DNA of 64,000 bases from Patescibacteria group bacterium (GCA_028717565.1 JAQUNP010000001.1:26736-90735), one strand, 5' to 3'. Counted from the stretch's first letter, positions 7,670 to 50,235 are shown. Numbers and translations: made by a program. The notes: generated from the letters alone by a model not told the origin.

Positions 7670-8116
7670 CTACGATGACTCGTAGGCGGCTGGCGTGGTA
7701 GACGACAAGGAGGCGGGGTTTCCAATCAGGTTTTCGACCAGTGCAAGGAGCGCACTGGGTCCTTCTGATTTGTGGAAGGAGGCAGCAGCTCCCAACTGCT
7801 CCGCCACGTGACTTAAGTCCGTGACCCCGTCGGCTCCGGTCATGCTGATGACCTGGATTTCCGGGTGATTATGGCGCAGTGCCATGATCAGCTCCAGACC
7901 ATCCATGTCCGGCATGTAGATGTCGGTGATGGCCAGCGCGACTTCGACGTTACGGAAGTTGCGCCCCAGGTCCTGGACCTGACCCAACGCATCCTGGCCG
8001 TTCTTGGCCCCGATGGCGCAATAGCCGCGCCGGTTCAGGGCCTCCACGGTCGATCGCAGGGCCTGGTCATCATCGTCCACCACTAAGATACAACGTACGG
8101 TTCCGATAGAGCTCAC
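7670..8116 (-). CDS. single-domain response regulator (CheY-like receiver)
   Basis: ILVVDDDD...DIYMPDMDGLELI receiver motifs. GTG start preceded by GGGAGGTGA. Own TTGACA-17-TACAAA promoter (8181-8153). Visibly GC-richer than neighbours. Confidence 0.85.
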   Translation of the reverse strand: MSSIGTVRCILVVDDDDQALRSTVEALNRRGYCAIGAKNGQDALGQVQDLGRNFRNVEVALAITDIYMPDMDGLELIMALRHNHPEIQVISMTGADGVTDLSHVAEQLGAAASFHKSEGPSALLALVENLIGNPASLSSTTPAAYESS

Positions 8117-8207
8117 AAAATCACCTCCCGTGAGCGTAATTACGTTGATGCCTTTGTATCAAAAAACCGCCCCCATGTCAAGAAAATATAGTGTGGATGC
8201 TATAAAT

Positions 8208-8525
8208 TTACGTGTTGGACTGACCGGTGAACATCACTGTAAGCGAATCAAACACATTTTTGAGTACTGGTAGAATGCCTGGGAAAAGCACGATAACCAA
8301 CACGATCCACAGCCAGTTCTTTTTGACTAAGCTCCACAAAAAAGCCGCCACTGCCAGTACCAAAATGATTGAAACCACCCACTGATATGCTTCCGGAAAG
8401 ATGCCGATAAAGCCATTGTAAGCATCAAAGATGCGTTGCATAAAACCAGCCGTAGCGGTTTCGGCCGCCTGCTGGGCTTGTCCGGCAACTTGATTAACAA
8501 CAGCTTCCCCTATCGTGTTTTCCAT
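8208..8525 (-). CDS. hypothetical membrane protein
   Basis: 105 aa with two clear hydrophobic helices. Confidence 0.55.
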   Translation of the reverse strand: MENTIGEAVVNQVAGQAQQAAETATAGFMQRIFDAYNGFIGIFPEAYQWVVSIILVLAVAAFLWSLVKKNWLWIVLVIVLFPGILPVLKNVFDSLTVMFTGQSNT

Positions 8526-8595
8526 AAATAAATTTTAACACAAAAAGAATCCGCCGGTGGTGACGACGGATTCTAGTATGAAGGCAGGGAAACGC

Positions 8596-9045
8596 TCATT
8601 TGAGCTTCTCACGAATTAGCTTCTCCGCATCTGCATGAGTTTTCCCCAGCAGCGAGAAACCAAAAACGAGCAGGTGGATGATGGGTGCCGATGTTGCGTT
8701 AAACCTCATTTCCTCGACAAATGTTTCGACCTCTTCGATCGATGGCATAGAGAAGTCGGAAACACCTTGGCGACGAATGAATGCGGTTTTGACCTTGACG
8801 ATGAAATCGTCCAATCGAGGATGAACGATGTTACGGATGCACGGCATCCGTAAGGTCAGAGCCATCTTCAGCTCAAAACGTCGCTGCAGCGCGGCAGCCT
8901 GATCCTGAATCGCACTGATTGTCTCCTCGCCTTCGAGAGCGCCCTTGCCTACACGCAGCTTATTCTTGCAAATCAGAATAGCATTACAAATGCTATTCAG
9001 ATCGTCCAAGAAGCTGAGTAGGATTTCGACGTCAACCGAGGGCAT
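8596..9045 (-). CDS. hypothetical protein (GC-rich ORFan)
   Basis: The ORF track start at 9069 was trimmed to the ATG at 9045, which is preceded by AAAGGAGG plus 7 nt. The gene is followed by terminator hairpin 8547-8573 with a U-tail on the minus strand. Confidence 0.5.
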   Translation of the reverse strand: MPSVDVEILLSFLDDLNSICNAILICKNKLRVGKGALEGEETISAIQDQAAALQRRFELKMALTLRMPCIRNIVHPRLDDFIVKVKTAFIRRQGVSDFSMPSIEEVETFVEEMRFNATSAPIIHLLVFGFSLLGKTHADAEKLIREKLK

Positions 9046-9140
9046 ACTTTTGCCTCCTTTGGGGTACACCCCACGATATGCCCTAAAGATAGCATGCCAT
9101 CTTAATTAGTCAATAAATAAAGTGCCTCTGGAAGCGGATT

Positions 9141-10145
9141 TTATTTAATTGCGGATTTAAAATCTTCCACTAGTTTAACTGGCGTTGGGTCGATGTTTAA
9201 CTGCATCGCTAAATAATAGGATGCCCAGTCCAGCAGCATGAGAGTCGCAAAAATTTTATAGAGTTTATTCCCTGCCGGCATATCCCAAATAGTTGCTTTT
9301 AGTCCGATGGGGCGTTCACGCAGCAGGTGAGCTGTGGCTAACATAGCTCTAGCTATTGCCGGATGCGTATCGGGGTCTTTTAGGATAACTATGCGGTAAT
9401 TGTCCCGGGTTTGGCTGAAACCAACCATTTCGTTATGGTTGAGCTCTGGAAATACATTCCAAAAAGCTGGGATTTTGGCGTTTTCATTGAATTTTATTTT
9501 GCCGATTCTAGCGACCGGCCAAAAATCATCACTGGTATAAAATAGCGGAATAGTACCGACCAAACTCTCGCCTAGCTGCTTACCCAAAACTTCGGTTTTA
9601 GCTTGTGAGAGAGCTTGAGCCATTTGCCGGACTTGCTTTTCGGCGGAAAAGTTGAGCCACTGGGCTTTAATCAACAGTGCGGTGAGTATGGCAAAGATGT
9701 ATCCCGTGGACATCCGAGGTTGAAAATCCTTGGACTCTTTTTTTAGGATTATATACTCTACTCCGTCTTTCACGGCACGCCGGATAAGTTCCCCACCGCT
9801 GGCGATGGCTATCACCTGCGCACCGGCCTGGACGGCCTGAGTGTAAGCCGAAAGGGTTTCGGCCGTGTTGCCAGAAAAAGAATTAACTATTACCAACACT
9901 TCACTATCTAAACTTTCGCGAATAACATAGTCGCGAGACAAGGTGATGGGGTATTTGAGCTCTTCAGCAAAAGCACAGTTGATTAGGTCACCAGCCAGCG
10001 CAGAACCGCCCATACCAGCCAAAATAGCTTTTGTGATTGGTCGTTTAATATTAACTGGCACCGATAGATCAAAGCCCTTGCCGAATTGCGCAGGATAATC
10101 GGCAATCATTTGCCACATATTAGAGGGATCGGATGAATTACGCAT
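9141..10145 (-). CDS. bifunctional phosphoglucose/phosphomannose isomerase (SIS domain)
   Basis: SIS-type GMGGSALAGDL motif, ~330 aa, PGI/PMI-family layout. Confidence 0.8.
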   Translation of the reverse strand: MRNSSDPSNMWQMIADYPAQFGKGFDLSVPVNIKRPITKAILAGMGGSALAGDLINCAFAEELKYPITLSRDYVIRESLDSEVLVIVNSFSGNTAETLSAYTQAVQAGAQVIAIASGGELIRRAVKDGVEYIILKKESKDFQPRMSTGYIFAILTALLIKAQWLNFSAEKQVRQMAQALSQAKTEVLGKQLGESLVGTIPLFYTSDDFWPVARIGKIKFNENAKIPAFWNVFPELNHNEMVGFSQTRDNYRIVILKDPDTHPAIARAMLATAHLLRERPIGLKATIWDMPAGNKLYKIFATLMLLDWASYYLAMQLNIDPTPVKLVEDFKSAIK

Positions 10146-10993
10146 TACTTTTTGACTAGACGTCTTAAATGTTTAATGTCAGTAATATCTCGCTTCACGT
10201 CCCCCGTACGTGGTGTTTCTAGTATAAACGGAATATTTTTTAAACGTGGGTGATTCACTAGATTTTTAAAACCGGCTTCGCCGATAAAACCTTCGCCGAT
10301 TTTAGCATGGCGATCTTTTTTCGAACCAAGCTCAAACCTAGCGTCATTGGCGTGAATAAACTCCAAGTGTTTCAAGCCGATCAGCCGATCAAACTTTTTT
10401 AAAAGGTCATTGATATCAACTTTGGTTCTAACATCAACACCAGACACAAACAAATGACACGTGTCCAAACAAAAGCCAAACCGCTGCTTGTGTTTCAGGC
10501 CTTTCCAAATTGCCCCCAGCTCCTCGATGGTATCGCCAATTCGGTTACCAGCTCCAGCATCGTTTTCAATAATCAATTTCACAGGCCACTTGTCACGCGT
10601 TAACTCCTCTAGTCGATTGAGCGTCTGGATAGTGTGGGTGATGCCTTCGGCGTTGCTGTTTTGATTGCTACCACAATGAAAGTTGTAGCCGTCTGCCCCA
10701 ATCCCATAGGCGATTTTGGCCTCGTCTTTGAGCTTTTTTAAACTCATGTTGCGCAAAGAGGCCTTGTGACTAGCCGGGTTGGGCAGATAGGCCGCGTGCA
10801 CTAACACTTTTTTTACTTTGGATTTTTTCCAGGCCTCCTTGAACCTCTGGGCCACTTTAACGTCAGGCAGGGGTGTAGTCCATATTTGCGGACTCCCGAC
10901 AAAAATCTGAATAACATCGCACTGCAAGGCCTCGGCCTCAACAAAGGCCCTAGAAAGTCCGCCGCTGGCTGACACATGATAGCCAAATAGCAT
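10145..10993 (-). CDS. nfo: deoxyribonuclease IV (AP endonuclease family 2)
   Basis: HAAYLPN, IENDAG, LDTCHLF and HANDA motifs typical of endonuclease IV. Confidence 0.9.
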   Translation of the reverse strand: MLFGYHVSASGGLSRAFVEAEALQCDVIQIFVGSPQIWTTPLPDVKVAQRFKEAWKKSKVKKVLVHAAYLPNPASHKASLRNMSLKKLKDEAKIAYGIGADGYNFHCGSNQNSNAEGITHTIQTLNRLEELTRDKWPVKLIIENDAGAGNRIGDTIEELGAIWKGLKHKQRFGFCLDTCHLFVSGVDVRTKVDINDLLKKFDRLIGLKHLEFIHANDARFELGSKKDRHAKIGEGFIGEAGFKNLVNHPRLKNIPFILETPRTGDVKRDITDIKHLRRLVKK

Positions 10994-10999
10994 GAGACC

Positions 11000-11008
11000 A
11001 TTATAACA
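11000..11008 (-). promoter_or_regulatory. extended -10 box TGTTATAAT, 6 nt upstream of the nfo ATG
   Basis: Reverse complement of 10994-11008 reads TGTTATAAT-GGTCTC, followed by the ATG at 10993. Confidence 0.55.
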
Positions 11009-11108
11009 ATCAAAAAAGCGGGTTGGGCGTTGTGCAAAAAAACCTTTAGTTTATGATAGTGTGGATTTATAAGGAGGCCTCTGATCCGAAGAGTTCTATG
11101 CCTCAAAG

Positions 11109-11183
11109 GGCCCGTTCGTCTATCGGTTAGGACGCAAGCTTCTCAAGCTTGAAAGAGGAGTTCGACTCTCCTACGGGCTACCA
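11109..11183 (+). tRNA. tRNA-Glu (anticodon CUC), CCA encoded
   Basis: Hand-folded cloverleaf: acceptor GGCCCGU/ACGGGCU, anticodon stem CAAGC/GCUUG with loop UUCUCAA, T arm AGGAG-UUCGACU-CUCCU, and discriminator A followed by the CCA end. Confidence 0.9.
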
Positions 11184-12669
11184 GATGCGATTTACTACCA
11201 TTGGAGTCTCTAATTATTGCGTATAGAGGGCTTAATTCAGGTGTTCGATAACTTTGATTGTCGCGAATTAGCCCATTGGGAAAAACTATTTTCTGTAGTG
11301 TGGCTTTTTGTGCAATAGAACTACGTTCCCATATTTTTGTTAAGTGTTCCAACATATAGGCTGAATAGTTTATCAATGCTTGTGCGTCATAGTCTTCAAT
11401 AACAAGCTCTTTTAACTTAACTGTGGTTGCTACGATCTGATTATCAAGAGACGACAGGAGTTGCTTGCATGTATCGTTGTCTGTGGCACCCTGTGCATTT
11501 TTAAGTGCAACCGCTTCTTTATCACGATGGATCTGTTTTATTCTTTTGTTAAGTTGGATTGATTCTTGCATTATGCTATGCGTACGAATCTTCCATGTTT
11601 TTGTAATTACAGTCTTGAATGATTCCACATATTCTTTTTGTGGACTAATAGCATCTAGAAGTTGTATAAACTCTTTTTCAGCTTTTGTCTTAGGCAAACT
11701 CTTAAAAGCACAACCAGTACGGGTGCAATGATAATATGCATATTTCTTAGATTTGCCTTTTGACCAACTTCCCGTCAGTTTTCTACCGCAATAACCACAC
11801 TGCAGAACCCCCCTCAGAGGAAAATCTGGATTCACCCTAGATCTTGATATTTTCTCTCCACGCTTTCCCGCCAGAACTCTTTGTACACTAACAAATAATT
11901 CAGGGCTTATTAAAGGTGAATGCTCCCCTCTTACGCCATCTGGTGCCATATTTTTAACGCGAACTATCCCCATATAAAATGGGTTTCTAAGCATTCGATT
12001 TACACGATGAGTTGATAATTTCGAACTAGTTGACAACAAAGGATTCACTTTATTTAGTACTTCGGTTTGAGTATAGGCACCCGTAGCAAAGAGTTCGAAG
12101 ATCTGAGTTACTGTAGCCCCACGTTCAGGATCAATAAAAACTTTGCTTTTATTATCACCAGTGGATACCAACTTATATCCATATGGCACATTGAAGAGCC
12201 AGCGACCTTTTTGGGTTAATGCTTCCATAGACATCTTTGTGCGCCAACTTCTTAAAGCATTATCAAATTGAGCAGTACCAGCTAAAATATTTTCAATAAA
12301 CTCCCCTGCTGGGTCATCACTAATTGGTTCTGTAGCTGATCTAAGTACTGTTCCCACCTTATTAATTGCGCCCTTAATGTAATAGTGATTTTCTGTATTG
12401 CGTGCTAATCTATCAACTTTATGTACTATCAATGCGTCAGGTTTATGTTTGGTACAGTAATCTAGCATCATAAGTAGTTGCGTCCGATCCATAAGCTTGG
12501 CACTCTCTCCTGCTTCTTTAAAAAGCTTCAAAACTTTATAGCCGTTGTTTTCAGCGTACTTTCTACAATCTCTAGCCTGAACCATTAGACTATATCCGTC
12601 AGTTGCCTGATCTACTGTAGAAACCCTTGTATAAATTATCGCTGTTTTCATTTTTTCTTTTCTTCCCAC
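11143..12669 (-). CDS. large serine recombinase (resolvase N-domain, recombinase domain, zinc ribbon)
   Basis: AIIYTRVSTVDQ catalytic-serine motif, VHKVDRLARN, and a Cys cluster CGYCG...YYHC. 508 aa. The 3' end overlaps the tRNA-Glu gene. Confidence 0.9.
   Translation of the reverse strand: MGRKEKMKTAIIYTRVSTVDQATDGYSLMVQARDCRKYAENNGYKVLKLFKEAGESAKLMDRTQLLMMLDYCTKHKPDALIVHKVDRLARNTENHYYIKGAINKVGTVLRSATEPISDDPAGEFIENILAGTAQFDNALRSWRTKMSMEALTQKGRWLFNVPYGYKLVSTGDNKSKVFIDPERGATVTQIFELFATGAYTQTEVLNKVNPLLSTSSKLSTHRVNRMLRNPFYMGIVRVKNMAPDGVRGEHSPLISPELFVSVQRVLAGKRGEKISRSRVNPDFPLRGVLQCGYCGRKLTGSWSKGKSKKYAYYHCTRTGCAFKSLPKTKAEKEFIQLLDAISPQKEYVESFKTVITKTWKIRTHSIMQESIQLNKRIKQIHRDKEAVALKNAQGATDNDTCKQLLSSLDNQIVATTVKLKELVIEDYDAQALINYSAYMLEHLTKIWERSSIAQKATLQKIVFPNGLIRDNQSYRTPELSPLYAIIRDSNGSKSHLVARRRVELLFQA
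11165..11183. repeat. att direct repeat, copy 1 (ACTCTCCTACGGGCTACCA, inside the tRNA-Glu 3' end)
   Basis: Exact 19-nt match with 15629-15647. Confidence 0.9.
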
Positions 12670-12911
12670 TTATAAAGACATTTTTCACAATGATACTTAT
12701 TTTTTGATGTTGTTAGAGAAGTTAGCCATATAATTGGCCACGCCAAAAGAAACCATATCCCTATAATTGGTAACCAAAAAATGAATATCAGACCGATCCA
12801 GAAACTCATACTTGCTATCGATTTAAGGTTTCTATTCTCGGATACCGCCTTGTATTCTCCACAATGCGGACATTTGATATAGAACTTATTACTTTTTAAG
12901 ATATTGCTCAT
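12648..12911 (-). CDS. zinc-ribbon membrane protein (CxxC...2 TM...CxxC)
   Basis: CPHCG and CEKC pairs flank two hydrophobic helices. Overlaps the recombinase start by 22 nt. Confidence 0.55.
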   Translation of the reverse strand: MSNILKSNKFYIKCPHCGEYKAVSENRNLKSIASMSFWIGLIFIFWLPIIGIWFLLAWPIIWLTSLTTSKNKYHCEKCLYKWEEKKK

Positions 12912-16219: not shown

Positions 16220-16435
16220 ATGTATAAGGAAACGTTTGCCTGGTCTGGGAATTTATGGGTTTTGGTCGGCTTCCTGTTGGGCGGCCTGTTGCTGGGTTGG
16301 CTATGGCACCCACTGATGCCCGCACACTGGTCTCTGCCGAACTCAATGTTAGCAGGGGTCATTCTCACCATGGTTTTACTGGTCGGCTGCTGGGTTCTCT
16401 ACGGCTGCCTGCGCTCAAAGGAAACTCCTGGCTAA
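16220..16435 (+). CDS. small GC-rich membrane protein (2 TM)
   Basis: GGTGAGGTGAGG RBS-like tract upstream, two hydrophobic helices, and terminator hairpin GGCCACCCC/GGGGTGGCC downstream. Confidence 0.45.
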   Translation: MYKETFAWSGNLWVLVGFLLGGLLLGWLWHPLMPAHWSLPNSMLAGVILTMVLLVGCWVLYGCLRSKETPG

Positions 16436-16697
16436 TCCATACTTCCCGGCACACCTTGGTTCAAGGCCACCCCATCTTAATAGGGGTGGCCTGTCTTGAC
16501 AATTTTGCCCAAAAGTATTACGCTCTGGGGGCTGATTTTTCGGCGCATTATAGGTGAACGCCTTGCTCTCTTCCTATCTCGACCGAGTTGTCTGGAATAG
16601 GGGCTTGTGGGTCTTTAAGACCTGGAGGCCCTCCTGCCACGTAGTGGCTCCGGGCCGGAGGGGGTATGGGCGTTTTTGTGTATATGTAATAGATAAT

Positions 16698-21117: not shown

Positions 21118-21218
21118 ATCTCCCTCCTTGAGATGGTTACTAGTAGATTGATTGGTATAAGGCATTATAACAGAGTTCCACCCCCGGCCCGAAGGCCGGG
21201 GGCTGTTTGAGGTTTGTG

Positions 21219-21422
21219 TTACCTGCCGATTCGTCCATTGCCGCCGTGCCGGTGACAGCGGATGGCCTTAGCCGGCCCATAGATCCGGTGAGGCGTTATC
21301 GTTTTCCGCCTCCGATCGCGGCGCGGCTGGTCCTCCGCCGTCGCATTGCCGTTAGGCAAGTTGAGGGCAAAAGTGCCATTAGTGGGCATCAGGATGGACG
21401 TCGCGGTTTCATCAGGTCTCAT
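21219..21422 (-). CDS. hypothetical small GC-rich protein (67 aa)
   Basis: GGAGGT plus 4 nt precedes the ATG. Followed by hairpin CCCCCGGCC-CGAA-GGCCGGGGG (21181-21202). Confidence 0.4.
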   Translation of the reverse strand: MRPDETATSILMPTNGTFALNLPNGNATAEDQPRRDRRRKTITPHRIYGPAKAIRCHRHGGNGRIGR

Positions 21423-21619
21423 ACTAACCTCCGATTAGTGTACACTGCTGAACCCCTACGAGTAGTTCAGTGATTTTAGTTTAGAGTGGCACCGCAAAAA
21501 AGTCAATGTGGCATTGACGTTTTCCGATTTTACACCTAGAATAAAACCCTCCCTATGGGAGATCCTTGTACCCATCATTATCGTGTATCGTTACTCCCTA
21601 CTGCCAACAAGGAGACGAG

Positions 21620-21943
21620 ATGAACATTTATGACAGAATCCGTGAGGAAGGTCGGAGCCCTGCTAAGAGTGTACCGGTTTCCCGGAGTCCGAAAACGGCT
21701 CGGCCTGTGGAATTTTACAGGGGACAGCAGTTTCAGCACATTCGGGATTGGCAGGACTATGTCCGCACCAACCCCGAACTGCAAGGGTTCGGATCTATCA
21801 CCGCTGTGACCAGTAGTGATAATCCTCGGGTCCGGCAGTTCGGTGAGGCCTTGCGGGACTTCCTGCACAAGCGGGAAGGCCTTTCGGGGCGAACGGACCT
21901 GCGGAAGTACCGTGAAGCAGTCCGCTCCGTACTGGACGCCTGA
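21620..21943 (+). CDS. hypothetical GC-rich protein (107 aa)
   Basis: AAGGAGA plus 4 nt precedes the ATG at 21620 (the track start at 21566 was trimmed). Strong terminator downstream. Confidence 0.5.
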   Translation: MNIYDRIREEGRSPAKSVPVSRSPKTARPVEFYRGQQFQHIRDWQDYVRTNPELQGFGSITAVTSSDNPRVRQFGEALRDFLHKREGLSGRTDLRKYREAVRSVLDA

Positions 21944-21971
21944 ACCCTCTACCCGGTACGACGCAATGATA

Positions 21972-22004
21972 CCCCGCGCACAATGTGCGCGGGGGTTGTT
22001 TTGT
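21972..22004 (+). terminator. intrinsic terminator
   Basis: CCCCGCGCAC-AAT-GTGCGCGGGG followed by GTTGTTTTGT. Confidence 0.7.
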
Positions 22005-26122: not shown

Positions 26123-26157
26123 GAAAAAAATGGGCCAGCGGCATCGACCGCCAGCCC
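26123..26157 (-). terminator. intrinsic terminator of the 84-aa GC-rich gene
   Basis: 10-bp stem GGGCUGGCGG/CCGCUGGCCC (minus-strand reading) followed by AUUUUUUU. Confidence 0.7.
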
Positions 26158-26190
26158 TGGTAAACGTGGTTAGAATCATTTCGGTTGGCT

Positions 26191-26445
26191 TTAGTTAGCG
26201 GAGTCAGGTAACCCGGAGCACCCAATGACCACTAGGACAAACCCGACCATGAGGTACACCGCCCCCATCACTGGGGTGATCTCCACGGCCTGTCCCAACC
26301 CAGAGAAGGGAATGGCAATATTGCCATCCGCTGTCAGGGTCGGAAAACATAGACGCAGCCAAACTACGCTAGACATCACCACCAGCCCAAGAATGATTAC
26401 TACCCACGTTAAGGTATCGTACCCCTCGGTGCTATGTATCGGCAC
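26191..26445 (-). CDS. small GC-rich membrane protein (84 aa)
   Basis: GGAGGTG plus 4 nt precedes a GTG start. Two to three hydrophobic helices and its own terminator. Confidence 0.45.
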   Translation of the reverse strand: MPIHSTEGYDTLTWVVIILGLVVMSSVVWLRLCFPTLTADGNIAIPFSGLGQAVEITPVMGAVYLMVGFVLVVIGCSGLPDSAN

Positions 26446-26469
26446 AGCGCACCTCCTCTGGCGCAGGGT

Positions 26470-27336
26470 TTATTTTTCGAGCTTATAGTGGCGCACCTTG
26501 AGCATAAAGTCAATCGTAGCCGTTTTGACTCGGTCTTTTCTCCACGGTTGAGTCAAAAAACGCCATAGCCATTCTAGTTCGATATCACGTACCCATTTGG
26601 GTGCCCGAATAGCTGGTGAGCGGTCTACTTTGGCATTCATGGCTGTACCTTGCACGATAAAGTCCAACGCCCCCCCGATACCGATAGCGATAACATTTTT
26701 GAGCTGGGGTAAGGTATCTTTCATCCATTTCATTTGTTTGTCAGCCGGATAAGCTAAAAAAATGATTTGGGGATTGGTCTGCTGAATACGTTGGATGACA
26801 TCCACCTCATCTTCGTAGGGTGGGCCCACCATCACCTCCACTACATTGAGACGCGGGTAAAGTGTTTGCATGACTCGTGCGGCTTTCAAGGCCACCCCCG
26901 GACCAGCACCAAGCAAAAAGATGCGATAATTTCTTTCGCTGGCAAGTTTGGCGATTTCCCAGACCATATCAGAACCTCGCAGGTGCTCGGGGATGACATT
27001 GAGCTGGCGTGGTGCAAAAACCACCGCCGCCCCGGTAATTAACCATTGCAAAAACTCCTGGATCTGACGCAGGATGGGGACGCGGGTCATGGGCAAAACA
27101 AGATATTTGGCAGCCCAGATCAAACCCACTCCATCAACCAAAGAGAGAGAGGCATTGTTCAGTACACTTTTAAACCACTCGTGCTTTTGCGCATACATTA
27201 CCATCTCCGGGTTAGGAGTGACGATGTAGTGGTTTTTGCGACTTCGCACCATATCCGTAATGGCTTGCAAGGCCTCCGGCAGACGCACCGCATGCACTTT
27301 TACGTCTAGGATTTCAACGATTTTGAGTGGTAGCAT
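26470..27336 (-). CDS. WecG/TagA/CpsF-family glycosyltransferase
   Basis: IVTPNPEMV...LSLVDGVGL...LGAGPGV...GGALDF pattern of the WecG/TagA family. Confidence 0.85.
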   Translation of the reverse strand: MLPLKIVEILDVKVHAVRLPEALQAITDMVRSRKNHYIVTPNPEMVMYAQKHEWFKSVLNNASLSLVDGVGLIWAAKYLVLPMTRVPILRQIQEFLQWLITGAAVVFAPRQLNVIPEHLRGSDMVWEIAKLASERNYRIFLLGAGPGVALKAARVMQTLYPRLNVVEVMVGPPYEDEVDVIQRIQQTNPQIIFLAYPADKQMKWMKDTLPQLKNVIAIGIGGALDFIVQGTAMNAKVDRSPAIRAPKWVRDIELEWLWRFLTQPWRKDRVKTATIDFMLKVRHYKLEK

Positions 27337-36672: not shown

Positions 36673-37953
36673 ATGAGAAAATACGCCTTCGTTTTGGGGT
36701 CTCATCCTTTGATTAGTTTTTTGGAGATCCTAAACATTTTAAACGTTGAAAAAATCCCCCACGAAAAGCCATTTCGCATCGGTGAGGAGATTTTGCTTAT
36801 CAAGATGAAAATCCCCGAAGCCAAACTGAAAAAGTTACAAAATATTTTGGGTGGGACTATCAAGATTATTGAGATTATGGACGAGTTCTCGGGCACTATT
36901 TTCAACCTCGATAAACTCTTGGATGAACAGCATTTAACCAAAGATTATTTTGCACAAACAGATACCAAGATAAATTTTGGCTTTTCGGTCTACAGCCAAA
37001 AAAGTTTGGTTTACGCCGAGATTAACTGGCTCAGGAATTTTGCCTTTCAACTGAAACGTCGGTTGAAGACAAAATACAGCGTACGCTATGTAGACGAAAA
37101 GAACTTTGAGCTAAGCTCGGTGATGGTGGCTAATAACAAACTGGTAGAGACCGGCGCCGAGATTATTATCATAAAACAAGACAAAGATTTTATTGTAGGT
37201 CGGACACGTACAGTACAAGATTTCAGAAGCTACGTGCAGCGGGATATGGAAAAACCATCACCTAATCCCAAGTCCGGAATGCTACCGCCCAAACTAGCCC
37301 AAATGATAATCAACCTCTCGAGAAATGCTGGACAGACACAAGTGTTTGATCCTTTCTGTGGCAGCGGGGTGTTACTGCAGGAGGGGTTGCTATTGGGACT
37401 GGAGATTCTGGGTTCCGACATCGACGAAGAAGCTGTAGAAGCTACACAGGAGAATCTGAAGTGGCTGTTAAAAACTTTTAATACTGCTGCACCGAAGATC
37501 GGCCGAGACAAGATTAAAGCAACTTCAATCCAGGGACGCACTCGGGCGGCCGACGCAACTCGCAGTCGTTGGCAAAAAGCCAACCAAACTAACGTCTTCA
37601 TTGCCACCGAGCCCTATCTGGGGCCGCCCCAAAGAAGCATCCCCTTGATCCATCATGCTAGAAAAACCGCCCAAGATTTGGAGAAACTATACCTAGGATT
37701 TTTTGAGAACCTGGCTAAGAATTACAGCAAGATTAAGAATGTGGGCATTGTATTCCCCGTGCTTAAAACTAATGAGGGTTTGCTGTATCTAAATATTTTA
37801 GATGAAGTAGAAAAAATGGGTTATAAACGCCGAGAATTCTTACCCAAAGAGGAGGCAAAAAAAGAGGCCCTCTCATCCCCCCGTGGCGGACTTTTATATT
37901 CCCGACCAGACCAGTATGTCTTGAGGGAGATATTTGTTTTTGACAAGAGATAG
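36673..37953 (+). CDS. putative RNA (guanine-N2/adenine-N6-type) methyltransferase, Trm11/UPF0020-like
   Basis: LPPKLAQMIINL...VFDPFCGSGVLLQEG motif I, preceded by a THUMP-like N-terminal region. Confidence 0.65.
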   Translation: MRKYAFVLGSHPLISFLEILNILNVEKIPHEKPFRIGEEILLIKMKIPEAKLKKLQNILGGTIKIIEIMDEFSGTIFNLDKLLDEQHLTKDYFAQTDTKINFGFSVYSQKSLVYAEINWLRNFAFQLKRRLKTKYSVRYVDEKNFELSSVMVANNKLVETGAEIIIIKQDKDFIVGRTRTVQDFRSYVQRDMEKPSPNPKSGMLPPKLAQMIINLSRNAGQTQVFDPFCGSGVLLQEGLLLGLEILGSDIDEEAVEATQENLKWLLKTFNTAAPKIGRDKIKATSIQGRTRAADATRSRWQKANQTNVFIATEPYLGPPQRSIPLIHHARKTAQDLEKLYLGFFENLAKNYSKIKNVGIVFPVLKTNEGLLYLNILDEVEKMGYKRREFLPKEEAKKEALSSPRGGLLYSRPDQYVLREIFVFDKR

Positions 37954-38004
37954 CAGATACTCTAGAATCCTAAGCGAGTAAGTACACACTTAGGGAGGTG
38001 ACCT

Positions 38005-38427
38005 ATGCCCATGCTTTCGCTAAAACGGTCGCTAGGTGCCCAGACAACCAGAAAAGGGATAGCTAGGATCCTATCCGAAGTCGGAATAGATGCAGCTCGA
38101 GAAGCTCTGCTAAGCACGAAATTCCGAGATATAACTGGTTTACAGGTCTTCCCGGTAGTACGCGGGGATCAGCCCCGCCGACCGCTTCGTCTGGTTTATC
38201 ACCCGGTGTATATTGAAAAGTCGGTGTTGGATTCCAGTTTTTGCTTGGCGTTGACAACTCGAGCAAATGTCCTGGTGGCCGAATCTTCTGCCACACAACT
38301 TACCAAAAAGCCGGGCCCAGAAGTCCTAGGGTGGCAGGCCCTAGAGATACTCGAAATGATTCTGAGCATAGCCCAGTATCATTCTTGGCAACTTCCTGAT
38401 ATCTGGTATGGACGCCATGAACCCTAA
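38005..38427 (+). CDS. hypothetical GC-rich protein (140 aa)
   Basis: GGGAGGTGA lies 3 nt before the ATG. A hairpin plus T-run follows the stop, ahead of the rpmA promoter. No domain recognised. Confidence 0.4.
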   Translation: MPMLSLKRSLGAQTTRKGIARILSEVGIDAAREALLSTKFRDITGLQVFPVVRGDQPRRPLRLVYHPVYIEKSVLDSSFCLALTTRANVLVAESSATQLTKKPGPEVLGWQALEILEMILSIAQYHSWQLPDIWYGRHEP

Positions 38428-38540
38428 CCCTACCTCTCATTGGAGAGAACCCGTCCTGGGAAACCATGGCGGGTTTGCTTGACGAAATAAATAAAAACCA
38501 GTAGATTATCCCTTGTATAAGATAACTATTATTTACCGAT

Positions 38541-41890: not shown

Positions 41891-42008
41891 TCATTACAAC
41901 ACACAAAAGTGTACTGGCTCCACCCCCTTTGAAGCACGCTCTTATCTTATCAAAAAACCACAATCCTCCAAATCTGCTAGATGTGTGAAAGAAGAAAAAT
42001 AAAAAATC

Positions 42009-42038
42009 GGCCGCACCCTATATCGCAAGGGCACGGCC
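42009..42038 (-). terminator. intrinsic terminator of the 151-aa GC-rich gene
   Basis: On minus: GGCCGUGCCCU-UGCGAUAU-AGGGUGCGGCC followed by GAUUUUUUAUUUUU. Confidence 0.7.
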
Positions 42039-42066
42039 AGCAGGAATGCTTGGGGGGGCTTAGCTA

Positions 42067-42522
42067 TCAGTCGGCTGGTTCAAAAGAGTCGTCTCCCGAC
42101 AAAATCGTCAGGAAAAACCAGTTGCCCACGTGAGGGGCTGCGACCAACAGCACGGCGGCCGCAATCGCATGGAGCCAGAGTGTGGCCGCGATCGGCAACA
42201 GACTGGAAGTAACATGGCGATACATTCCTGCCACGAATAGGTCGGGGATCAGCCAGATAGCAAGTGTGCTGATCAGTCCATACACGATGGCCATAGCCAC
42301 CGAAAGTATTATCCCGAACCAGTCGATCGGTCCCCACCACCCAGCAGGATGAACGGCGGTAAAGACAAGTGCGGCTACGATGGCAGCCGTGGCAATGGTG
42401 ATGCCGGTCCCCCAGACACCAAACTGGAAATTCTGATGGACCAAGATGGTGACGGGGATAGATAGCAGACCCACGACCCACCACATCCAGTAGAGCTTAA
42501 AGTAATGCCCAAAGGTGCTCAT
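42067..42522 (-). CDS. hypothetical GC-rich polytopic membrane protein (151 aa)
   Basis: AAGGGAGGG plus 6 nt precedes the ATG. Four to five hydrophobic helices and its own terminator. Confidence 0.5.
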   Translation of the reverse strand: MSTFGHYFKLYWMWWVVGLLSIPVTILVHQNFQFGVWGTGITIATAAIVAALVFTAVHPAGWWGPIDWFGIILSVAMAIVYGLISTLAIWLIPDLFVAGMYRHVTSSLLPIAATLWLHAIAAAVLLVAAPHVGNWFFLTILSGDDSFEPAD

Positions 42523-42647
42523 CTTGAGCCCTCCCTTTCGAAGATGATTACGATACTGGACCTAGTATAGCAAATATTGGCTCTAGGTCAACAAAAATCA
42601 ACGGCTCAGCAGACGCCAGGTCAGCTTTGACTGAGCGCACAGACGGC

Positions 42648-45575: not shown

Positions 45576-46840
45576 CTCCGCCTAGTTGTTTGCCATAACG
45601 CCTCTCGTCGACAAAGCTTAGCAACATCTTTTGGATGCGCTAACAAATGCTCAATGATTCCTTCTAAGAAACGAGCCCCTTTAAAGATGAGGGTCTCCTC
45701 TCCTTGCAGATGCGCCTGGATATAGTCCAGGGCGTTGCGAGGATGCAAAAAAGATATTACATTGTCAGACCCAATTTGTTTGACTAACGGCGTGTACACC
45801 GTTCTCCTCAAACGTGGGCCAACTAAAATAATTTTCTGGGGGCTGTTCGCCAAAATGGGATCGATCAGACCTAAGTGATCTGCCGTTTCGCTCTGGCCTT
45901 GTTCTATTAAATCGCCAAGAATAATCCACTTTCGCCTTGTCTTCAATTTTGATGTCATTTCGAGAATGGCGCGTGTGGAGGCCAAGTTGGCATTGTAGCT
46001 ACTATCAATAATGGTAGTTTTTTTAACTCCCTGTAAAATTGAGCTCCGACTCGGTGGCAGTTCAAATTTAGCCATACCTGGCGCTGCCAAACGAAGAATC
46101 TGTGCTGCATAAATTGTCGCCATGAGGCTATAACCAAATACCTTGGGCAACAGGTATGAAAAATTGTAACGTTTTCTAAGATACGAAAAGCTCGTACCAG
46201 TTGGGCTGATTGTGTAGTCAGAAATATCTTTTAGAGATAGTAAATGTGGCTGGGCTTGGGTGCGACTCAGCTGATTCATGATCTCGGGATTATCCCGATT
46301 GACAATGACATGGTTGGTGGTGGCTGCCAAAAAATGTCCAAATTCCCAGGCAATGGCGGATTCAACTTTCTGAAAACGCCGAGAGCGACCCACTAATCTA
46401 TCAAAATTCTGCGTATGAGTGCGATCACTACTAAGCCAAATAGTCATCCACGGCTGTAAAAATCCTGCCAAGAACTGTCCTTCGTAAGGGCGATCGCAAT
46501 CGGCCTCCACCACATATATTTTTTGCGGATAGGGCGATTTGAAGGCTCGGCCAGGAGTTTGGAAAAAAAGTTTTATCCATTCAGTTTTTTTGAAGGTAGT
46601 CCGCTTTAAGCCCAAGATATCGAATGGGATGCCAAAAGCACTATTAGCCCTATCCGAAAAATGTGCCTGATTACCCAAGACACTTTTGAGCAAATGTAGT
46701 GTGGAGGTTTTACCGTTAGAACCAGTAACTACAATAATCTGCGGGTGCCAACGTTGCAGCTGAATATTGGCAAAAAACCGGAAATAGCTGGCCACCCCGA
46801 AATACAAACGAGATTTAAGCTTACGGATGATTGAAATCAT
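45563..46840 (-). CDS. Mur-ligase family protein (MurF-like, short N-terminus)
   Basis: P-loop VVTGSNGKTST near residue 40 and IIDSSYNAN motif as in MurF. Confidence 0.8.
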   Translation of the reverse strand: MISIIRKLKSRLYFGVASYFRFFANIQLQRWHPQIIVVTGSNGKTSTLHLLKSVLGNQAHFSDRANSAFGIPFDILGLKRTTFKKTEWIKLFFQTPGRAFKSPYPQKIYVVEADCDRPYEGQFLAGFLQPWMTIWLSSDRTHTQNFDRLVGRSRRFQKVESAIAWEFGHFLAATTNHVIVNRDNPEIMNQLSRTQAQPHLLSLKDISDYTISPTGTSFSYLRKRYNFSYLLPKVFGYSLMATIYAAQILRLAAPGMAKFELPPSRSSILQGVKKTTIIDSSYNANLASTRAILEMTSKLKTRRKWIILGDLIEQGQSETADHLGLIDPILANSPQKIILVGPRLRRTVYTPLVKQIGSDNVISFLHPRNALDYIQAHLQGEETLIFKGARFLEGIIEHLLAHPKDVAKLCRREALWQTTRRRWEL

Positions 46841-46919
46841 TAGCAGCTTGCAAAATTTAGTATCGTAACTCTATTGCTACAGCTTAGAGCGCCGCCCCGG
46901 TTAGCTTTTGCCTCCAGAA

Positions 46920-47276
46920 TTATTTGGACCACGACTGGCTGACTTTTTGCCCATTGGGCATGACCATTTCGACATAGCCGGTCTCGCCATCTTCATTGAA
47001 GTAATAATCCATATCGGTGCCCATCCCATTGAACGTCACGTGGCACAAACCATCATATTTACCTCCGGACACTAGCTCCACAATCTTCCAAGATCCTTCT
47101 TGCCCATCATTGCCTTGATAGTTCCAGTCAGCACCAGTTTGACACCAGCTAGTCGTATTGCCGACATTGGTGGTAACAGTTCCCTCATCGGTAGTAATAG
47201 TTTTAGTGGCACCGCCGCAGGCAGTGAGCACAAAAGCCGCCATTACTACAGTCACTAACAACCATCCTTTTTTCAT
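46920..47276 (-). CDS. lipoprotein, function unknown
   Basis: Signal peptide with lipobox VLTAC. 118 aa. Confidence 0.65.
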   Translation of the reverse strand: MKKGWLLVTVVMAAFVLTACGGATKTITTDEGTVTTNVGNTTSWCQTGADWNYQGNDGQEGSWKIVELVSGGKYDGLCHVTFNGMGTDMDYYFNEDGETGYVEMVMPNGQKVSQSWSK

Positions 47277-47294
47277 AACTTTCTCCTATAGAAA

Positions 47295-49325
47295 TTAAAT
47301 ATCTAGATTTTTTACTGCCTTAGCATTGTCATGAATGAATTTTTTGCGTGGTGCTACATCGTCACCCATGAGTGTAGCAAAAACTTCATCGGCTTGGATT
47401 GCGTCTTCAATCGCCACTTGGTGCAGAATCCGATTTTTCGGATCCATGGTGGTTTCCCACAACTGGTTGGCGTTCATCTCTCCCAAACCTTTGTACCGCT
47501 GGATGTTAATGCCTTTAAGCTTATTATCGGCTTGGACTTCCTCTTCGGGAGTTTCACTTAATTCTTCCTCAGAGATTTCAACCGCTTCCTTTTTGGCCTC
47601 GGCTTTGGTTTTTTTCTCTTCTTTCATGGCCAGCATTTCCTCAATCGCTCGGTCTTTTTCCTCGTCGCTATAAACCCACCGCACATCTTTGCCTTTTTTA
47701 AGTTGGTAAAGCGGGGGTTGAGCAATGTAGAGATACCCTTTGTGAATGATCTCTGGCATGTAGCGGTAGAAGAAGGTTAAAAGCAGGGTGCGAATGTGAG
47801 CGCCGTCAACATCAGCATCGGTCATGATAATGACACGATGGTATCTGATTTTTTCAATATCAAATTGCTCCCCGATACCAGTGCCCAAAGCGATAATGAG
47901 CGATTTGACTTCGTTGTTGGATAACATTTTATCCAACCGAGCCTTTTCGACATTTAAAATTTTTCCCCGTAAAGGCAAAATAGCCTGGAACTCCCGATCG
48001 CGTCCGCTTTTTGCAGAACCGCCAGCGCTGTCTCCCTCTACAATGTAAACTTCGCAATGTTCGGCTTTTTTGCTGGAGCAATCTGCCAGTTTGCCCGGCA
48101 GAGTCATACCTTCCAAAGCACCTTTGCGGATAACTGTATCACGCGCTGCCCGAGCCGCCAATCTGGCTTTTGCTGCCAACAGGGTCTTTTGAATGATGCG
48201 TCTGGCCTCGCTAGGATGTTCTTCAAGATAATTGGCAAAGTAGTCACCAAATACCGACTCCACCGCTGTCCGAACTTCGGTATTGCCAAGTTTGGCCTTG
48301 GTCTGTCCTTCAAACTGCGGATTGGCTAATTTCACAGAGATAATAGCCGTTAAGCCCTCTCGCACATCGTCGCCAGTTAAGGCCTCGTTGCCATTTTTGA
48401 TGATGCCGACTTTTTTGGCATAGTTGTTTAAAGTTCTCGTCAACGCCGCCCTAAAACCAATCACATGTGTGCCACCTTCAGCGTTTAAGATGTTATTGGC
48501 AAAAGCACGTAAAACCTCGTTGAACTCTTCGGTGTACTGCAGAGCAATTTCAACCTGCACGCCCTGTTTTTCCTTATCGACATAGAAAGGCGGAGCAAAG
48601 AGCGGAGTTTTATTAGCATTGATTTCCTCCACATAAGCCCTCACACCACCTTCGTAGTGAAACTCCAAAGATTCCCCAGTTTTTTCATTCGTAGCTTTTA
48701 GGTGTACGCCCTTTGTGAGATAGGCCTGCTGCTTGAGTCGTTCGATAATAGTTTTCCAGTTGTACTCAATGTCCACGTCAAAAATCTCTGGATCGGCATG
48801 GAAAGATACCCGTGTGCCACTGCCCTTTTCTTGAGTCGATACAGATTTTACGGCACCCTTGGCCTTACCTTTGCTGTACTCTTGCGAATAGAGCTTACCG
48901 TCGCGCAAGACCTCTACTTTCATCCAGTCGGATAGAGCGTTAACCACCGAAACACCCACCCCATGCAAACCGCCCGAAACTTTATATCCGCCACCGCCAA
49001 ACTTACCACCAGCATGCAGGGTGGTGAGCACTGTTTCTAGGGTGGATTTTTTTGTTTGAGGGTGTTTCTCTACCGGGATACCACGACCGTCGTCAATAAC
49101 TGTGACTTTATCGTCTTTATGCAAAACTACCTCAACAATTGTAGCGTAGCCAGCCATGGCTTCATCAATACCGTTGTCAACGACTTCCCAAATCAGATGG
49201 TGAATACCATCAACGCCGGTTGACCCAATATACATACCCGGGCGCTTACGAACAGGGTCGAGCCCCTCAAGCACCTGAATGTCTTTGGCACCGTAATTAC
49301 TTTTTGAGGTTTCTTTTTTGGCCAT
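47295..49325 (-). CDS. gyrB: DNA gyrase subunit B
   Basis: YGAKDIQVLEGLDPVRKRPGMYIG, EGDSAGG, PLRGKILNV and QRYKGLGEM motifs. Confidence 0.97.
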   Translation of the reverse strand: MAKKETSKSNYGAKDIQVLEGLDPVRKRPGMYIGSTGVDGIHHLIWEVVDNGIDEAMAGYATIVEVVLHKDDKVTVIDDGRGIPVEKHPQTKKSTLETVLTTLHAGGKFGGGGYKVSGGLHGVGVSVVNALSDWMKVEVLRDGKLYSQEYSKGKAKGAVKSVSTQEKGSGTRVSFHADPEIFDVDIEYNWKTIIERLKQQAYLTKGVHLKATNEKTGESLEFHYEGGVRAYVEEINANKTPLFAPPFYVDKEKQGVQVEIALQYTEEFNEVLRAFANNILNAEGGTHVIGFRAALTRTLNNYAKKVGIIKNGNEALTGDDVREGLTAIISVKLANPQFEGQTKAKLGNTEVRTAVESVFGDYFANYLEEHPSEARRIIQKTLLAAKARLAARAARDTVIRKGALEGMTLPGKLADCSSKKAEHCEVYIVEGDSAGGSAKSGRDREFQAILPLRGKILNVEKARLDKMLSNNEVKSLIIALGTGIGEQFDIEKIRYHRVIIMTDADVDGAHIRTLLLTFFYRYMPEIIHKGYLYIAQPPLYQLKKGKDVRWVYSDEEKDRAIEEMLAMKEEKKTKAEAKKEAVEISEEELSETPEEEVQADNKLKGINIQRYKGLGEMNANQLWETTMDPKNRILHQVAIEDAIQADEVFATLMGDDVAPRKKFIHDNAKAVKNLDI

Positions 49326-49517
49326 ACAAAAATCAATCGATATCTGTTAGCGCGGGCTCAAACCAACCCACTCGCTACTTGAATTATACCTGAAACACGA
49401 GATCAGAACAATTGTTTTTGTATAAGAAAAACCTTGACTAGAAGCTGCTTTTTGTGTATTCTTCCCGTGATGGTTGGGGGGGGAACCCTTGATCATTAAA
49501 TCACCAAGCAGAGGAGT

Positions 49518-50144
49518 ATGAACATGCTTCGGTTTTATGGTGGCCTCCTGATTGTTGCGACTGTGCTGACGATGGTTATGATCGCCAGTCCGGCTGTGGC
49601 CGACACAATCCTGTTTGAGGATCGTGCGTACATCGACACCGACACTGGTGGTGTCGATCATGGGTTCTTGCTGGTCATCCCCGATCACGAGGGAGCTTGG
49701 CAGTTTGCCTGCTCTCCGAACGTAAATGGGTTTGACTTCGGCCTTCGTTTGCCCCGGATAGATTGGGGCGAATTCAAGGTACAGCCCAGATCAGTTTTGC
49801 TATTCCGCGACGGGCAAGACCTTCCGAACTTGAAGCTGCAAACCATGACCGCTGGTGCGCCAGGGTACTGGCTCAACAGCGTGGTCTTGTCAGAGAGCCA
49901 TCGGGCTCGGTATTACGAAGAGCTCGGATGGGATATCGTCTCCGGCAAACACACAACCTTTTCTGTTATTGGGTGTTTGGCTGGTGAGTTCTCTCAATAC
50001 ACCAAGCCCACTTTACAGGTTGGGCCGGCTCTGACCTGGCACCTTCGGGACAAGGCAGACCTCCAGGTCTACTACGGCTTCGGGGTAGCCAGTGCATCTG
50101 ACGTATCGTGGCTTCAGGTGGATTTCTACATCCCTACATCGTAG
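49518..50144 (+). CDS. hypothetical secreted GC-rich protein (208 aa)
   Basis: Own TTGACT-17-TATTCT promoter (49434-49462), GAGGAG RBS, signal peptide (...SPAVA/DT) and terminator at 50172-50210. The start may be the ATG at 49524. Confidence 0.5.
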   Translation: MNMLRFYGGLLIVATVLTMVMIASPAVADTILFEDRAYIDTDTGGVDHGFLLVIPDHEGAWQFACSPNVNGFDFGLRLPRIDWGEFKVQPRSVLLFRDGQDLPNLKLQTMTAGAPGYWLNSVVLSESHRARYYEELGWDIVSGKHTTFSVIGCLAGEFSQYTKPTLQVGPALTWHLRDKADLQVYYGFGVASASDVSWLQVDFYIPTS

Positions 50145-50235
50145 GGGTCTGCACCATGAAGCAATACAAAACCCCCGGCGACCGTGTGTGGCTGGGGGCC
50201 TTTGTTGTGTGACAGTGTGAATAAGTGAAAACCAG

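Follow-up and report, generated by a model that had tools for sequence, protein, structure and literature searches.

GC-rich, Shine-Dalgarno-led single-gene units between the core genes of a Kazan-like Patescibacteria genome: a possible class of rapidly turning-over accessory genes

Whether a gene whose base composition departs from that of its neighbours must have arrived recently from elsewhere is the question raised by a 64,000-nucleotide stretch of the genome of a Patescibacteria group bacterium (GCA_028717565.1, JAQUNP010000001.1:26736-90735; "the window" means this whole stretch, and positions are counted from its first letter). Between positions 7,670 and 50,235, nine short open reading frames (ORFs) lie in gaps between core genes, and the original prediction regarded them as GC-rich ORFan cassettes acquired one by one from a higher-GC donor that uses Shine-Dalgarno (SD) sequences, with the host of an epibiotic member of the candidate phyla radiation (CPR) as the obvious candidate. 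Atypical GC content is routinely taken as a sign of recent foreign origin and used for donor guesses. Our analysis suggests that the ORFs are real single-gene transcription units of a Kazan-like flexible genome, 21219-21422 and perhaps 16220-16435 being doubtful members. We favour, with about as much belief as doubt, the reading that they belong to a class of accessory genes, spread across the clade, that are expressed autonomously and turn over rapidly, and that their GC excess would be maintained rather than inherited from a donor.

The GC content of the window is 46.1%, and the GC content at third codon positions (GC3) of 36 core genes is 0.480±0.027, with a maximum of 0.547. Each ORF was scored against in-frame core-gene chunks of equal length, which gives the z values listed below together with the position of each unit, its coding sequence (CDS), its product and its putative expression signals.

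Cassette 1, 7670..8181, minus strand: CheY-like stand-alone receiver (CDS 7670-8116, GTG start, 148 aa); GC 0.600, GC3 0.738, z +6.2; SD GGGAGGTG, promoter-like TTGACA-17-TACAAA at 8181-8153, no terminator of its own, abutting a leaderless asnS/aspS-type promoter.
Cassette 2, 8546..9113, minus strand: 149-aa soluble protein of unknown function (CDS 8596-9045); GC3 0.580, marginal (p=0.03), overall GC not significant; promoter-like TTGACT-16-TATCTT at 9113-9086, SD AAAGGAGG, terminator 8574-8546.
Cassette 3, 16220..16492, plus strand: 71-aa ORF with two predicted transmembrane (TM) segments (CDS 16220-16435); GC3 0.667, z +3.1; SD GGTGAGGTGAGG, hairpin 16464-16492 (-27.6 kcal/mol), no TTGAC box.
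Cassette 4a, 21180..21506, minus strand: 67-aa Arg-rich ORF, half of a divergent pair (CDS 21219-21422); GC 0.608, GC3 0.691, z +3.4; promoter-like TTGACT-17-TAAACT at 21506-21478, SD CGGAGG, GC hairpin 21203-21180.
Cassette 4b, 21514..21994, plus strand: 107-aa soluble protein of unknown function (CDS 21620-21943); GC3 0.620, z +2.8; promoter-like TTGACG-17-TAGAAT at 21514-21542, SD AAGGAG, terminator 21972-21994.
Cassette 5, 26132..26513, minus strand: 84-aa protein with two TM segments (CDS 26191-26445, GTG start); GC3 0.647, z +3.0; TTGACT at 26513 (-68), within the 3' end of the wecG-family gene, SD AGAGGAGG, terminator 26157-26132.
Cassette 6, 37940..38475, plus strand: 140-aa soluble protein of unknown function (CDS 38005-38427); GC3 0.475, not raised, with atypical synonymous codon choice (z -3.0); promoter TTGACA-17-TAGAAT at 37940-37968, overlapping the methyltransferase stop (11/12 positions match, the best in the region), SD GGGAGGTG, hairpin 38448-38475.
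Cassette 7, 42008..42591, minus strand: 151-aa polytopic membrane protein with about 4-5 TM-like segments (CDS 42067-42522); GC 0.555, GC3 0.664, z +4.5; promoter TTGACC-16-TATACT at 42591-42564, SD AAGGGAGGG, terminator 42039-42008.
Cassette 8, 49434..50198, plus strand: 208-aa predicted secreted beta-barrel (CDS 49518-50144, alternative start 49524); GC 0.544, GC3 0.636, z +4.5; promoter TTGACT-17-TATTCT at 49434-49462, SD AGAGGAG, hairpin 50172-50198 common to this gene and the convergent pheT.

Seven of the nine ORFs are GC3 outliers (0.62-0.74, z +2.8 to +6.2), so that the claim that all nine are GC-richer has to be narrowed: the excess in 8596-9045 is marginal, and the GC3 of 38005-38427 is normal. 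Eight of nine make atypical synonymous codon choices (p<0.05), 8596-9045 being the exception (p=0.13), and the shifts run towards AAG, CAG, CTG, GGG, CGG, TTC, ATC and GTC; GC3 and codon usage of most cassettes are thus not indistinguishable from those of core genes. Most of the tallest 200-bp GC peaks of the window coincide with the nine ORFs, and the long shadow ORFs reported in other frames of the GC-rich ones are present. The pattern GC3>GC1>GC2 (GC1 and GC2 being the first two codon positions) holds in the reading frames given above, with values for GC1/GC2/GC3 of 0.58/0.43/0.63 for the pooled cassettes and 0.63/0.43/0.74 for the receiver gene. Translational selection as the sole cause of the high GC3 is unlikely, as GGG and CGG rise too and the genes for ribosomal protein L27 and AhpC are raised by only 0.04-0.05.

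The cassettes also differ from the other genes of the window in their expression signals. An SD sequence (GGAGG, AGGAG or GAGGTGAGG) stands 4-8 nt before the start in nine of nine cassettes, which bears out the strong ribosome-binding sites (RBS) originally described, versus 4 of 46 other genes (Fisher p=1e-7), and an exact TTGAC lies at -65 to -106 from the start in eight of nine versus 4 of 46 (p=3e-6), both p-values being inflated because the ORF set was chosen partly by GC and RBS. The TTGAC boxes pair with a plausible -10 element at a spacing of 16-17 nt in eight of nine. Two promoters had been named at the outset; a promoter scan found the one at 49434-49462, whereas it passed over the site at 8181-8153, where the TTGACA box is paired with a poor -10 (TACAAA). 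A downstream hairpin is present in eight of nine, the receiver gene being the exception. Four of six terminators named earlier are among the top-ranked terminator-like sites (8546-8574, 21972-21994, 26132-26157 and 42008-42039), but the strong hairpin at 21180-21203 (-24.4 kcal/mol, z -4.2) has no U tail, and that at 50172-50198 is weaker (z -1.8) and lacks a good one; additional hairpins lie 3' of 16220-16435 (z -3.4) and 38005-38427 (z -3.9).

The remaining genes look quite different: 42 of the 46 have no SD, and in 13 a TAnnnT -10 box lies between -17 and -11 relative to the ATG, in seven cases starting exactly at -12. Leaderless transcripts have this geometry, with no SD and a -10 box that ends some 6-7 nt ahead of the ATG, and this suggests from sequence that leaderless transcripts may be widespread among the core genes of the lineage. 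The pattern occurs window-wide (e.g., upstream of 6238-7626, 8208-8525, 10145-10993, 24814-26106 and 63091-63855), and relatives display it too. The cassettes depart from the core in three independent ways, namely composition, translation-initiation signal and promoter type. In the literature, we found no earlier account of SD versus leaderless gene classes or of GC-rich orphans in CPR.

SD use is nevertheless native to this lineage and not foreign, and several conserved genes carry an SD both here and in relatives: ahpC (start at 21117), 19977-20174, 23370-23681, 46920-47276 and 1456-1704. The last of these (minus strand), encoding 82 aa, is 60% identical and syntenic (before pth and mfd) in a relative (L104), and its GC3 lies about 0.10 over core in the window and in L104 alike; it is a vertically inherited example of the association between SD and high GC3. 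Among genes occupying the compared slots in relatives, those led by an SD deviate from core GC3 by a mean of +0.086 (n=10) and those without SD by -0.032 (n=11; Mann-Whitney p=0.005).

By GyrB, the nearest named relatives are genomes labelled 'candidate division Kazan' (68-74% identity), and one Joint Genome Institute (JGI) metagenome contig (L013, JGI 3300037424), with 89% identical GyrB and 81% identity across four core proteins, is the closest sister. We mapped the window proteins onto GyrB- and GltX-centred loci of eight to ten Kazan-like genomes. The gene order PheS-PheT-GyrB-Alr-PyrG-L27-methyltransferase (MTase)-serine hydroxymethyltransferase is kept in every GyrB-centred locus, and a slot comparison was possible for five cassettes (8596, 26191, 38005, 42067 and 49518). 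All five are absent from the syntenic slots of the nearest relatives; in these slots the cassettes are not conserved across the whole lineage. In L013, the PheT-GyrB, L27-MTase and GyrB-Alr gaps measure 90, 116 and 300 bp; therefore 49518, 38005 and the whole 42067-47276 segment are absent, and all of these are also missing in L015. GyrB and alr are adjacent in seven relatives. In L020 and L019, no copy of 8596 stands between pgi and the homologue of 8208-8525 (a gap of about 10 bp in L020), and 26191 is likewise missing from the interval that separates the WecG-family gene from gltX (64 bp in L020). Some slots hold other genes: a different SD-led ORF occupies the 26191 slot in L018, and the MTase-L27 slot, which lacks 38005 in L013 and L101, carries other, non-homologous small SD-led genes in L097, L102 and L103.

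A tBLASTn search of about 100 loci found none of the nine except 49518, with only generic matches of about 32% in unrelated loci for the receiver gene. Five conserved small genes of normal GC (8208-8525, 19977-20174, 23370-23681, 34384-34725 and 53524-53892) were readily found in the same loci, so small size does not explain the missing cassette homologues. The co-occurrence of the composition and signal traits with poor conservation is real despite the selection bias. The picture of self-contained, compositionally atypical single-gene units between core genes, with promoter, SD and usually a terminator, and with variable presence, is thereby borne out.

The one cassette whose history can be followed is 49518-50144, for which an exhaustive HMMER search found six relatives. 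The two nearest, of 45% and 40% identity, are annotated in metagenome-assembled genomes (MAGs) of Patescibacteria or of a 'bacterium', and all those with genomic context lie in Patescibacteria-like genomes. Homologues of 37-45% identity occupy the same PheT-GyrB slot in L096 (5470-6102) and L097 (8728-9348), in the same orientation, opposite to PheT and GyrB, and keep the promoter region (AAAAA..TTGACTrGrAGCTG); a further homologue, 28% identical, lies in L104 (8001-8789), which shares with the window the order small gene, pth, mfd. In the four genomes, the GC3 of the gene against that of the core is 0.636/0.480 (window), 0.589/0.448, 0.754/0.586 and 0.722/~0.60, an offset of +0.147±0.020 (r=0.97) over host backgrounds of 0.45-0.60. 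Because the family proteins are only 28-45% identical, synonymous sites are saturated; GC3 follows each host yet stays above it, which argues for a maintained property and not for unameliorated foreign DNA. As far as these sequences indicate, the family appears to have equilibrated with each host genome while retaining the offset, which is not expected of fresh foreign DNA.

Whether this gene was gained or lost is a harder matter. On a neighbour-joining tree of four proteins, ((L015,L101),(L013,window)),((L102,L103),(L096,L097)), the fact that the window, L096 and L097 all carry 49518 implies three losses or two gains. Same slot, same orientation and conserved promoter speak for common descent. 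The junction is the same in the five genomes without the cassette: the stop codon of pheT lies directly against the -35 region, AATCTCTTGT, of the gyrB promoter. The similarity order within the family (window-L097, 185 bits, above L096-L097, 150 bits) is discordant with the core tree, which could also reflect rate variation because only three taxa are involved. Together, the species tree, the discordant order and the shared cassette-less junction suggest a possible later gain in the window lineage. Transfer with its flanks by homologous recombination was considered and rejected: PheT and GyrB stay closest to L013 up to the junction. Through gain or loss alike, the 49518 family belongs to the Patescibacteria gene pool.

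The product of 49518-50144 has a signal peptide ending at an AVA-D site, and an AlphaFold2 (AF2) model from a six-sequence alignment (predicted local distance difference test score, pLDDT, 83; predicted template-modelling score, pTM, 0.74) consists of an N-terminal helix and 12 long strands. The best Foldseek matches in the PDB are all outer-membrane barrels: NanC (2wjq), KdgM (4fqe, 4pr7) and intimin/invasin (4e1s, 4e1t), with probability 1.0, template-modelling scores of 0.57-0.67 and E~1e-4. We thus predict a secreted, 12-stranded transmembrane beta-barrel. The likeness to KdgM/NanC and intimin/invasin barrels lies in the predicted signal peptide and the 12 long antiparallel strands of the model; the protein differs in being 8-10% identical to its structural matches and in having no family-model match, and the model rests on six sequences. 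At E<=0.1 it has no Pfam or NCBIfam match, porin families included. CPR cells examined so far have been described as monoderm (PMC8871954), and a predicted barrel of outer-membrane type would be odd for such a group.

On the reading that we favour, each unit would sit in a gap between core transcription units and bring with it a canonical -35/-10 promoter, a leader of about 25-70 nt with a strong GGAGG SD and usually a hairpin terminator; with its own expression kit, it could therefore be expressed wherever it lands, leaving its neighbours undisturbed. The products would serve mainly the envelope and signalling (three membrane proteins, the predicted barrel and the CheY-like receiver, with four of unknown function). 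The units would be gained and lost fast, the same slots being empty or filled by unrelated SD-led genes in relatives, and the gain would most likely proceed via exchange inside the Patescibacteria/Kazan gene pool, combined with differential loss. In a groundwater study, most detected horizontal gene transfer (HGT) into Patescibacteria came from other Patescibacteria (PMC12455944). The GC/GC3 excess would be a persistent property of the class, a roughly constant offset over the host background, which may be kept up by selection on codon or mRNA features or by GC-biased gene conversion at exchange-prone slots.

Several points weigh against this reading. Only one family was traced, and carrying its history over to the other eight would be an extrapolation; seven of the nine have no detectable relatives, and for these an unsampled non-CPR donor is possible. 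For 49518 itself, the data on gain versus loss conflict. The left-hand cassettes (7670, 16220 and 21219/21620) lack a close sister locus and were compared only with relatives of 64-77% identity. The receiver gene (GC 60%, GC3 0.74) resembles a gene of a genome of about 60% GC, and its weak best matches are non-CPR and higher in GC. No insertion mechanism was seen at the cassettes: no integrase, no shared repeats and no convincing target duplications. Simple expression-linked codon bias does not explain the GC3 offset, given the small rise in L27 and ahpC, and the choice of ORFs by GC and RBS inflates the p-values given above.

The earlier idea of recent one-by-one acquisition from a higher-GC, SD-using non-CPR bacterium, plausibly an epibiont's host, with the donor signals still in place, would account for the GC1/GC2/GC3 values of the pooled cassettes and of the receiver, which are like those of genes in 55-60% GC genomes, and for the rise of G/C-ending codons including GGG and CGG, which fits general GC pressure better than translational selection. 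It would equally account for canonical sigma70, SD and terminator signals unlike those of core genes, for the absence of the cassettes from relatives, and for the fact that the closest matches of the receiver lie in metabolically rich non-CPR contigs of 56-64% GC. We consider it unlikely all the same. The searches, which extended to the large databases for the receiver, 42067 and 49518, brought up no close donor of any cassette: the receiver matches are only 36-41% identical, 42067 has no relative at all, and the relatives of 49518 are Patescibacteria-like only, two of them in the same slot and with GC3 tracking each host, so that no high-identity non-CPR relative emerged from the best matches. 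The one family with a traceable history thus contradicts the idea. Moreover, SD-led GC3-rich genes include conserved, vertically inherited ones, and ahpC and others use an SD natively. As for the host as donor, an epibiotic lifestyle of this Kazan-like organism is an assumption and not a finding.

A more serious rival, though a doubtful one to our mind, is that the cassettes have been inherited vertically for a long time as fast-evolving genes specific to the lineage, whose absence elsewhere reflects repeated loss or divergence beyond recognition and whose composition and signals mark a distinct expression class. The orthologues of 49518 in a different sub-clade, with the same slot, orientation and conserved promoter, are what such a history would leave, as are the constant GC3 offset over four genomes, the like behaviour of 1456-1704, the higher GC3 of SD-led slot genes across the clade and the lack of mobility genes or repeats at the cassettes. 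It would need at least three independent clean losses of 49518, however, each leaving the pheT stop against the same AATCTCTTGT promoter sequence, and the family's ranking by similarity does not follow the species tree; in L013, for all its 81% identity in four core proteins, the three right-hand cassettes are missing and have left no remnant, and unrelated genes fill the slots in different relatives. That the set is an artefact, either spurious frames in GC-rich non-coding DNA or a chimeric assembly, is highly improbable, and likelier for 21219 alone than for the set. Long ORFs do arise in more than one frame of GC-rich DNA, the product of 21219-21422 is Arg-rich and of low complexity, this ORF and 16220-16435 are apparently not in the NCBI annotation, and six of nine have no homologue to vouch for them. 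But 7670 has a Pfam domain, 49518 is a conserved family with a confident predicted fold, the GC3>GC1>GC2 order and clean TM patterns appear in the expected frames, and SD, promoter and terminator are correctly placed in eight of nine; the products of seven ORFs match NCBI-annotated proteins (locus tags PHR51_*) exactly or share a 90% cluster with one, and the units are gene-sized inserts within one 359-kb contig. In addition, the Logan assembly of SRR22315506 contains a 31.7-kb contig 100% identical over window 1-18116, including the junctions of three cassettes, which argues against an assembler-specific chimera for those three and to that extent answers the concern about chimeric assembly.

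A bolder version of the favoured reading is that the Kazan clade has a 'plug-in' gene class, equipped with promoter, SD leader and terminator amid leaderless genomes, with GC3 actively held about 0.1-0.15 above the host and the barrel included. We regard this as a long shot, even less probable than the host as donor. If it were true, the barrel from a presumably monoderm cell could insert into the outer membrane of a diderm host as a nutrient conduit.

The products agree with what had been predicted: a receiver domain recognised by Pfam, three small membrane proteins with TM-like segments, a protein with a signal peptide, and unknowns. The label 'ORFan' fits 42067, for which no homologue was found among 5.8 billion proteins, and may fit the six cassettes other than 7670, 42067 and 49518, which have no Pfam, NCBIfam or PHROG match and no match in about 100 loci, large databases not having been searched for them; it does not fit 7670, a Response_reg protein, or 49518 with its small family. 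No cassette matches phage (PHROGs) or defence (PADLOC) families, save generic matches of the receiver. 8596-9045 has no family match in Pfam, NCBIfam, PHROGs or PADLOC, and its single-sequence AF2 model (pLDDT 43) was unusable. Scans of viral contigs were negative for 8596, 38005 and 21620, and 21620-21943 has no homologues in any fetched locus either. Structured RNA in place of the small ORFs was considered and set aside, Rfam finding only three tRNAs. The product of 16220-16435 had no exact match in the protein collection, and the ORF is apparently outside the NCBI annotation, so that its coding status is less certain; 21219-21422, called only in the Logan assembly and apparently likewise outside the NCBI annotation, is doubtful as a real gene in view of its Arg-rich, low-complexity product. 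That two of nine ORFs were apparently missed by the NCBI pipeline PGAP matters for the way genes are called in CPR MAGs. In the divergent 21219/21620 pair, the two -35 boxes stand back to back and form a perfect 17-nt palindrome, GTCAATGTGGCATTGAC (21502-21518), which could be an operator for a shared regulator.

The receiver (7670-8116) belongs to Pfam Response_reg (PF00072; E 8e-18, 65.1 bits against a cut-off of 30.2), its residues 10-127 matching profile positions 1-110 of 111. Like CheY-like single-domain regulators, it has a full receiver domain with an acidic pocket (VVDDDD) and a D-x-x-M-P-x-M-D-G motif and no output domain; it differs from them in a C-terminal Ser/Thr/Pro-rich tail and in relatives of 36-41% identity. 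No cognate histidine kinase was seen in the window. The best matches lie in non-CPR, metabolically rich contigs (L098, 63.7% GC; L099, 55.8%). Identities of 36-41% are generic for receiver domains. On sequence grounds, an outside origin is more plausible for this gene than for any other cassette, though such identities would say little of it.

Among known systems, the cassettes most resemble flexible-genome islets or hot spots, in which single genes of atypical composition occupy the same core-gene gaps and are absent or replaced in relatives, but they come without integrase, tRNA, insertion sequence (IS) element or flanking repeat, and they are GC-richer, not AT-richer, with an excess that persists in orthologues and tracks host GC. 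With ORFans or species-specific orphan genes (SSOGs) they share short length, a general lack of homologues or domains and richness in membrane and secreted products; they differ in lying 6-14 GC points higher and in departing from the core in their translation-initiation signals. In a large survey, the GC and GC3 of orphans closely matched the native genome, and phage-like orphans were lower in GC (bioRxiv 10.1101/2023.07.17.549306), and the upward deviation of the cassettes is therefore unusual. As compact, modular-looking single-ORF units they also recall integron cassettes. Those are normally promoterless, end in an attC site and are arrayed beside an intI integrase, whereas the units here are dispersed, have their own promoter and terminator, share no repeat and go with no integron integrase.

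If the GC excess is indeed conserved in orthologues and tracks the host, composition alone would mislead HGT and host-inference pipelines in such reduced genomes. The division between a leaderless core and SD-led accessory genes equipped with promoter and terminator suggests two expression regimes in one small genome, which bears on how CPR bacteria regulate their few variable genes. Since the variable genes encode mostly envelope proteins, a porin-like barrel included, they are candidate components of the interface between cells by which CPR lifestyles are defined.

The neighbouring genes have ordinary core functions according to Pfam: Asx-, Glu- and Phe-tRNA synthetases; GyrB, CTP synthase, alanine racemase, phosphoglucose isomerase (PGI) and AhpC in replication and metabolism; and L27, a WecG-family glycosyltransferase, a resistance-nodulation-division (RND) pump and a FemAB-family protein. 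Used as a contig-search query, the RND transporter (16554-19895) retrieved only 22-40% identical proteobacterial AcrB genes and no sister genome. Cassette 7 borders on a 4.6-kb cluster related to the cell wall and normal in GC (42648-47276), inserted between gyrB and alr, which encodes a FemAB-family protein, a DegT/EryC1 aminotransferase, an alpha/beta hydrolase, a Mur-ligase-like protein and a 118-aa protein from an SD-led gene. The cluster is absent from the gyrB-alr slot in seven of seven relatives, and of its genes only that for the 118-aa protein has a homologue, which follows gyrB directly in L101. With a gene content that differs in L019 and L020, the stretch from ahpC to the 23370 homologue is another variable slot; here an FkbM-family methyltransferase gene of low GC (22130-22963, plus strand; 37.5%, GC3 0.31) adjoins the 21219/21620 pair and a tRNA-Gln gene. 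Further GC peaks (up to 0.61) lie at 1082-2070 and 4123-5641; about 4341-5300 there is no convincing gene, only short ORFs at 4329-4523 and 4553-4795 (GC 0.55-0.57) without relatives in the fetched loci, and Rfam was blank for this stretch.

With regard to mobility, no sequences are common to the cassettes, and their flanking repeats are short and at chance level only; there is no common 3' repeat, and neither an integron integrase nor a tyrosine integrase occurs among the scanned genes. Shared cassette ends or attC-like sites were rejected, as the flank similarities at PheT-GyrB and MTase-L27 are promoter motifs. The only recombinase of the window sits in a separate low-GC element. This classical integrated element (11109-15647; GC 31-39% versus 46%) lies beside tRNA-Glu(CTC) at 11109-11183, whose 19-nt 3' end, ACTCTCCTACGGGCTACCA (11165-11183), is repeated at 15629-15647, and it encodes a large serine recombinase (11143-12669), a helix-turn-helix/small-terminase-like protein (13001-13480) and ORFs of unknown function. 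It is the clearest HGT island of the window and deviates in the direction opposite to the cassettes. Finally, the 20-nt motif TTCTAAAATCTTCTACRGGG occurs three times (0 expected), at 41751-41770, 41871-41890 and 63911-63930, with two copies, 100 nt from each other and immediately upstream of alr, making up a 21-nt inverted repeat. In relatives (L013, about 3105-3420), the motif forms inverted repeats around small low-GC GIY-YIG genes, and the window copy therefore looks like the empty remnant of a GIY-YIG mini-element resembling a miniature inverted-repeat transposable element (MITE).

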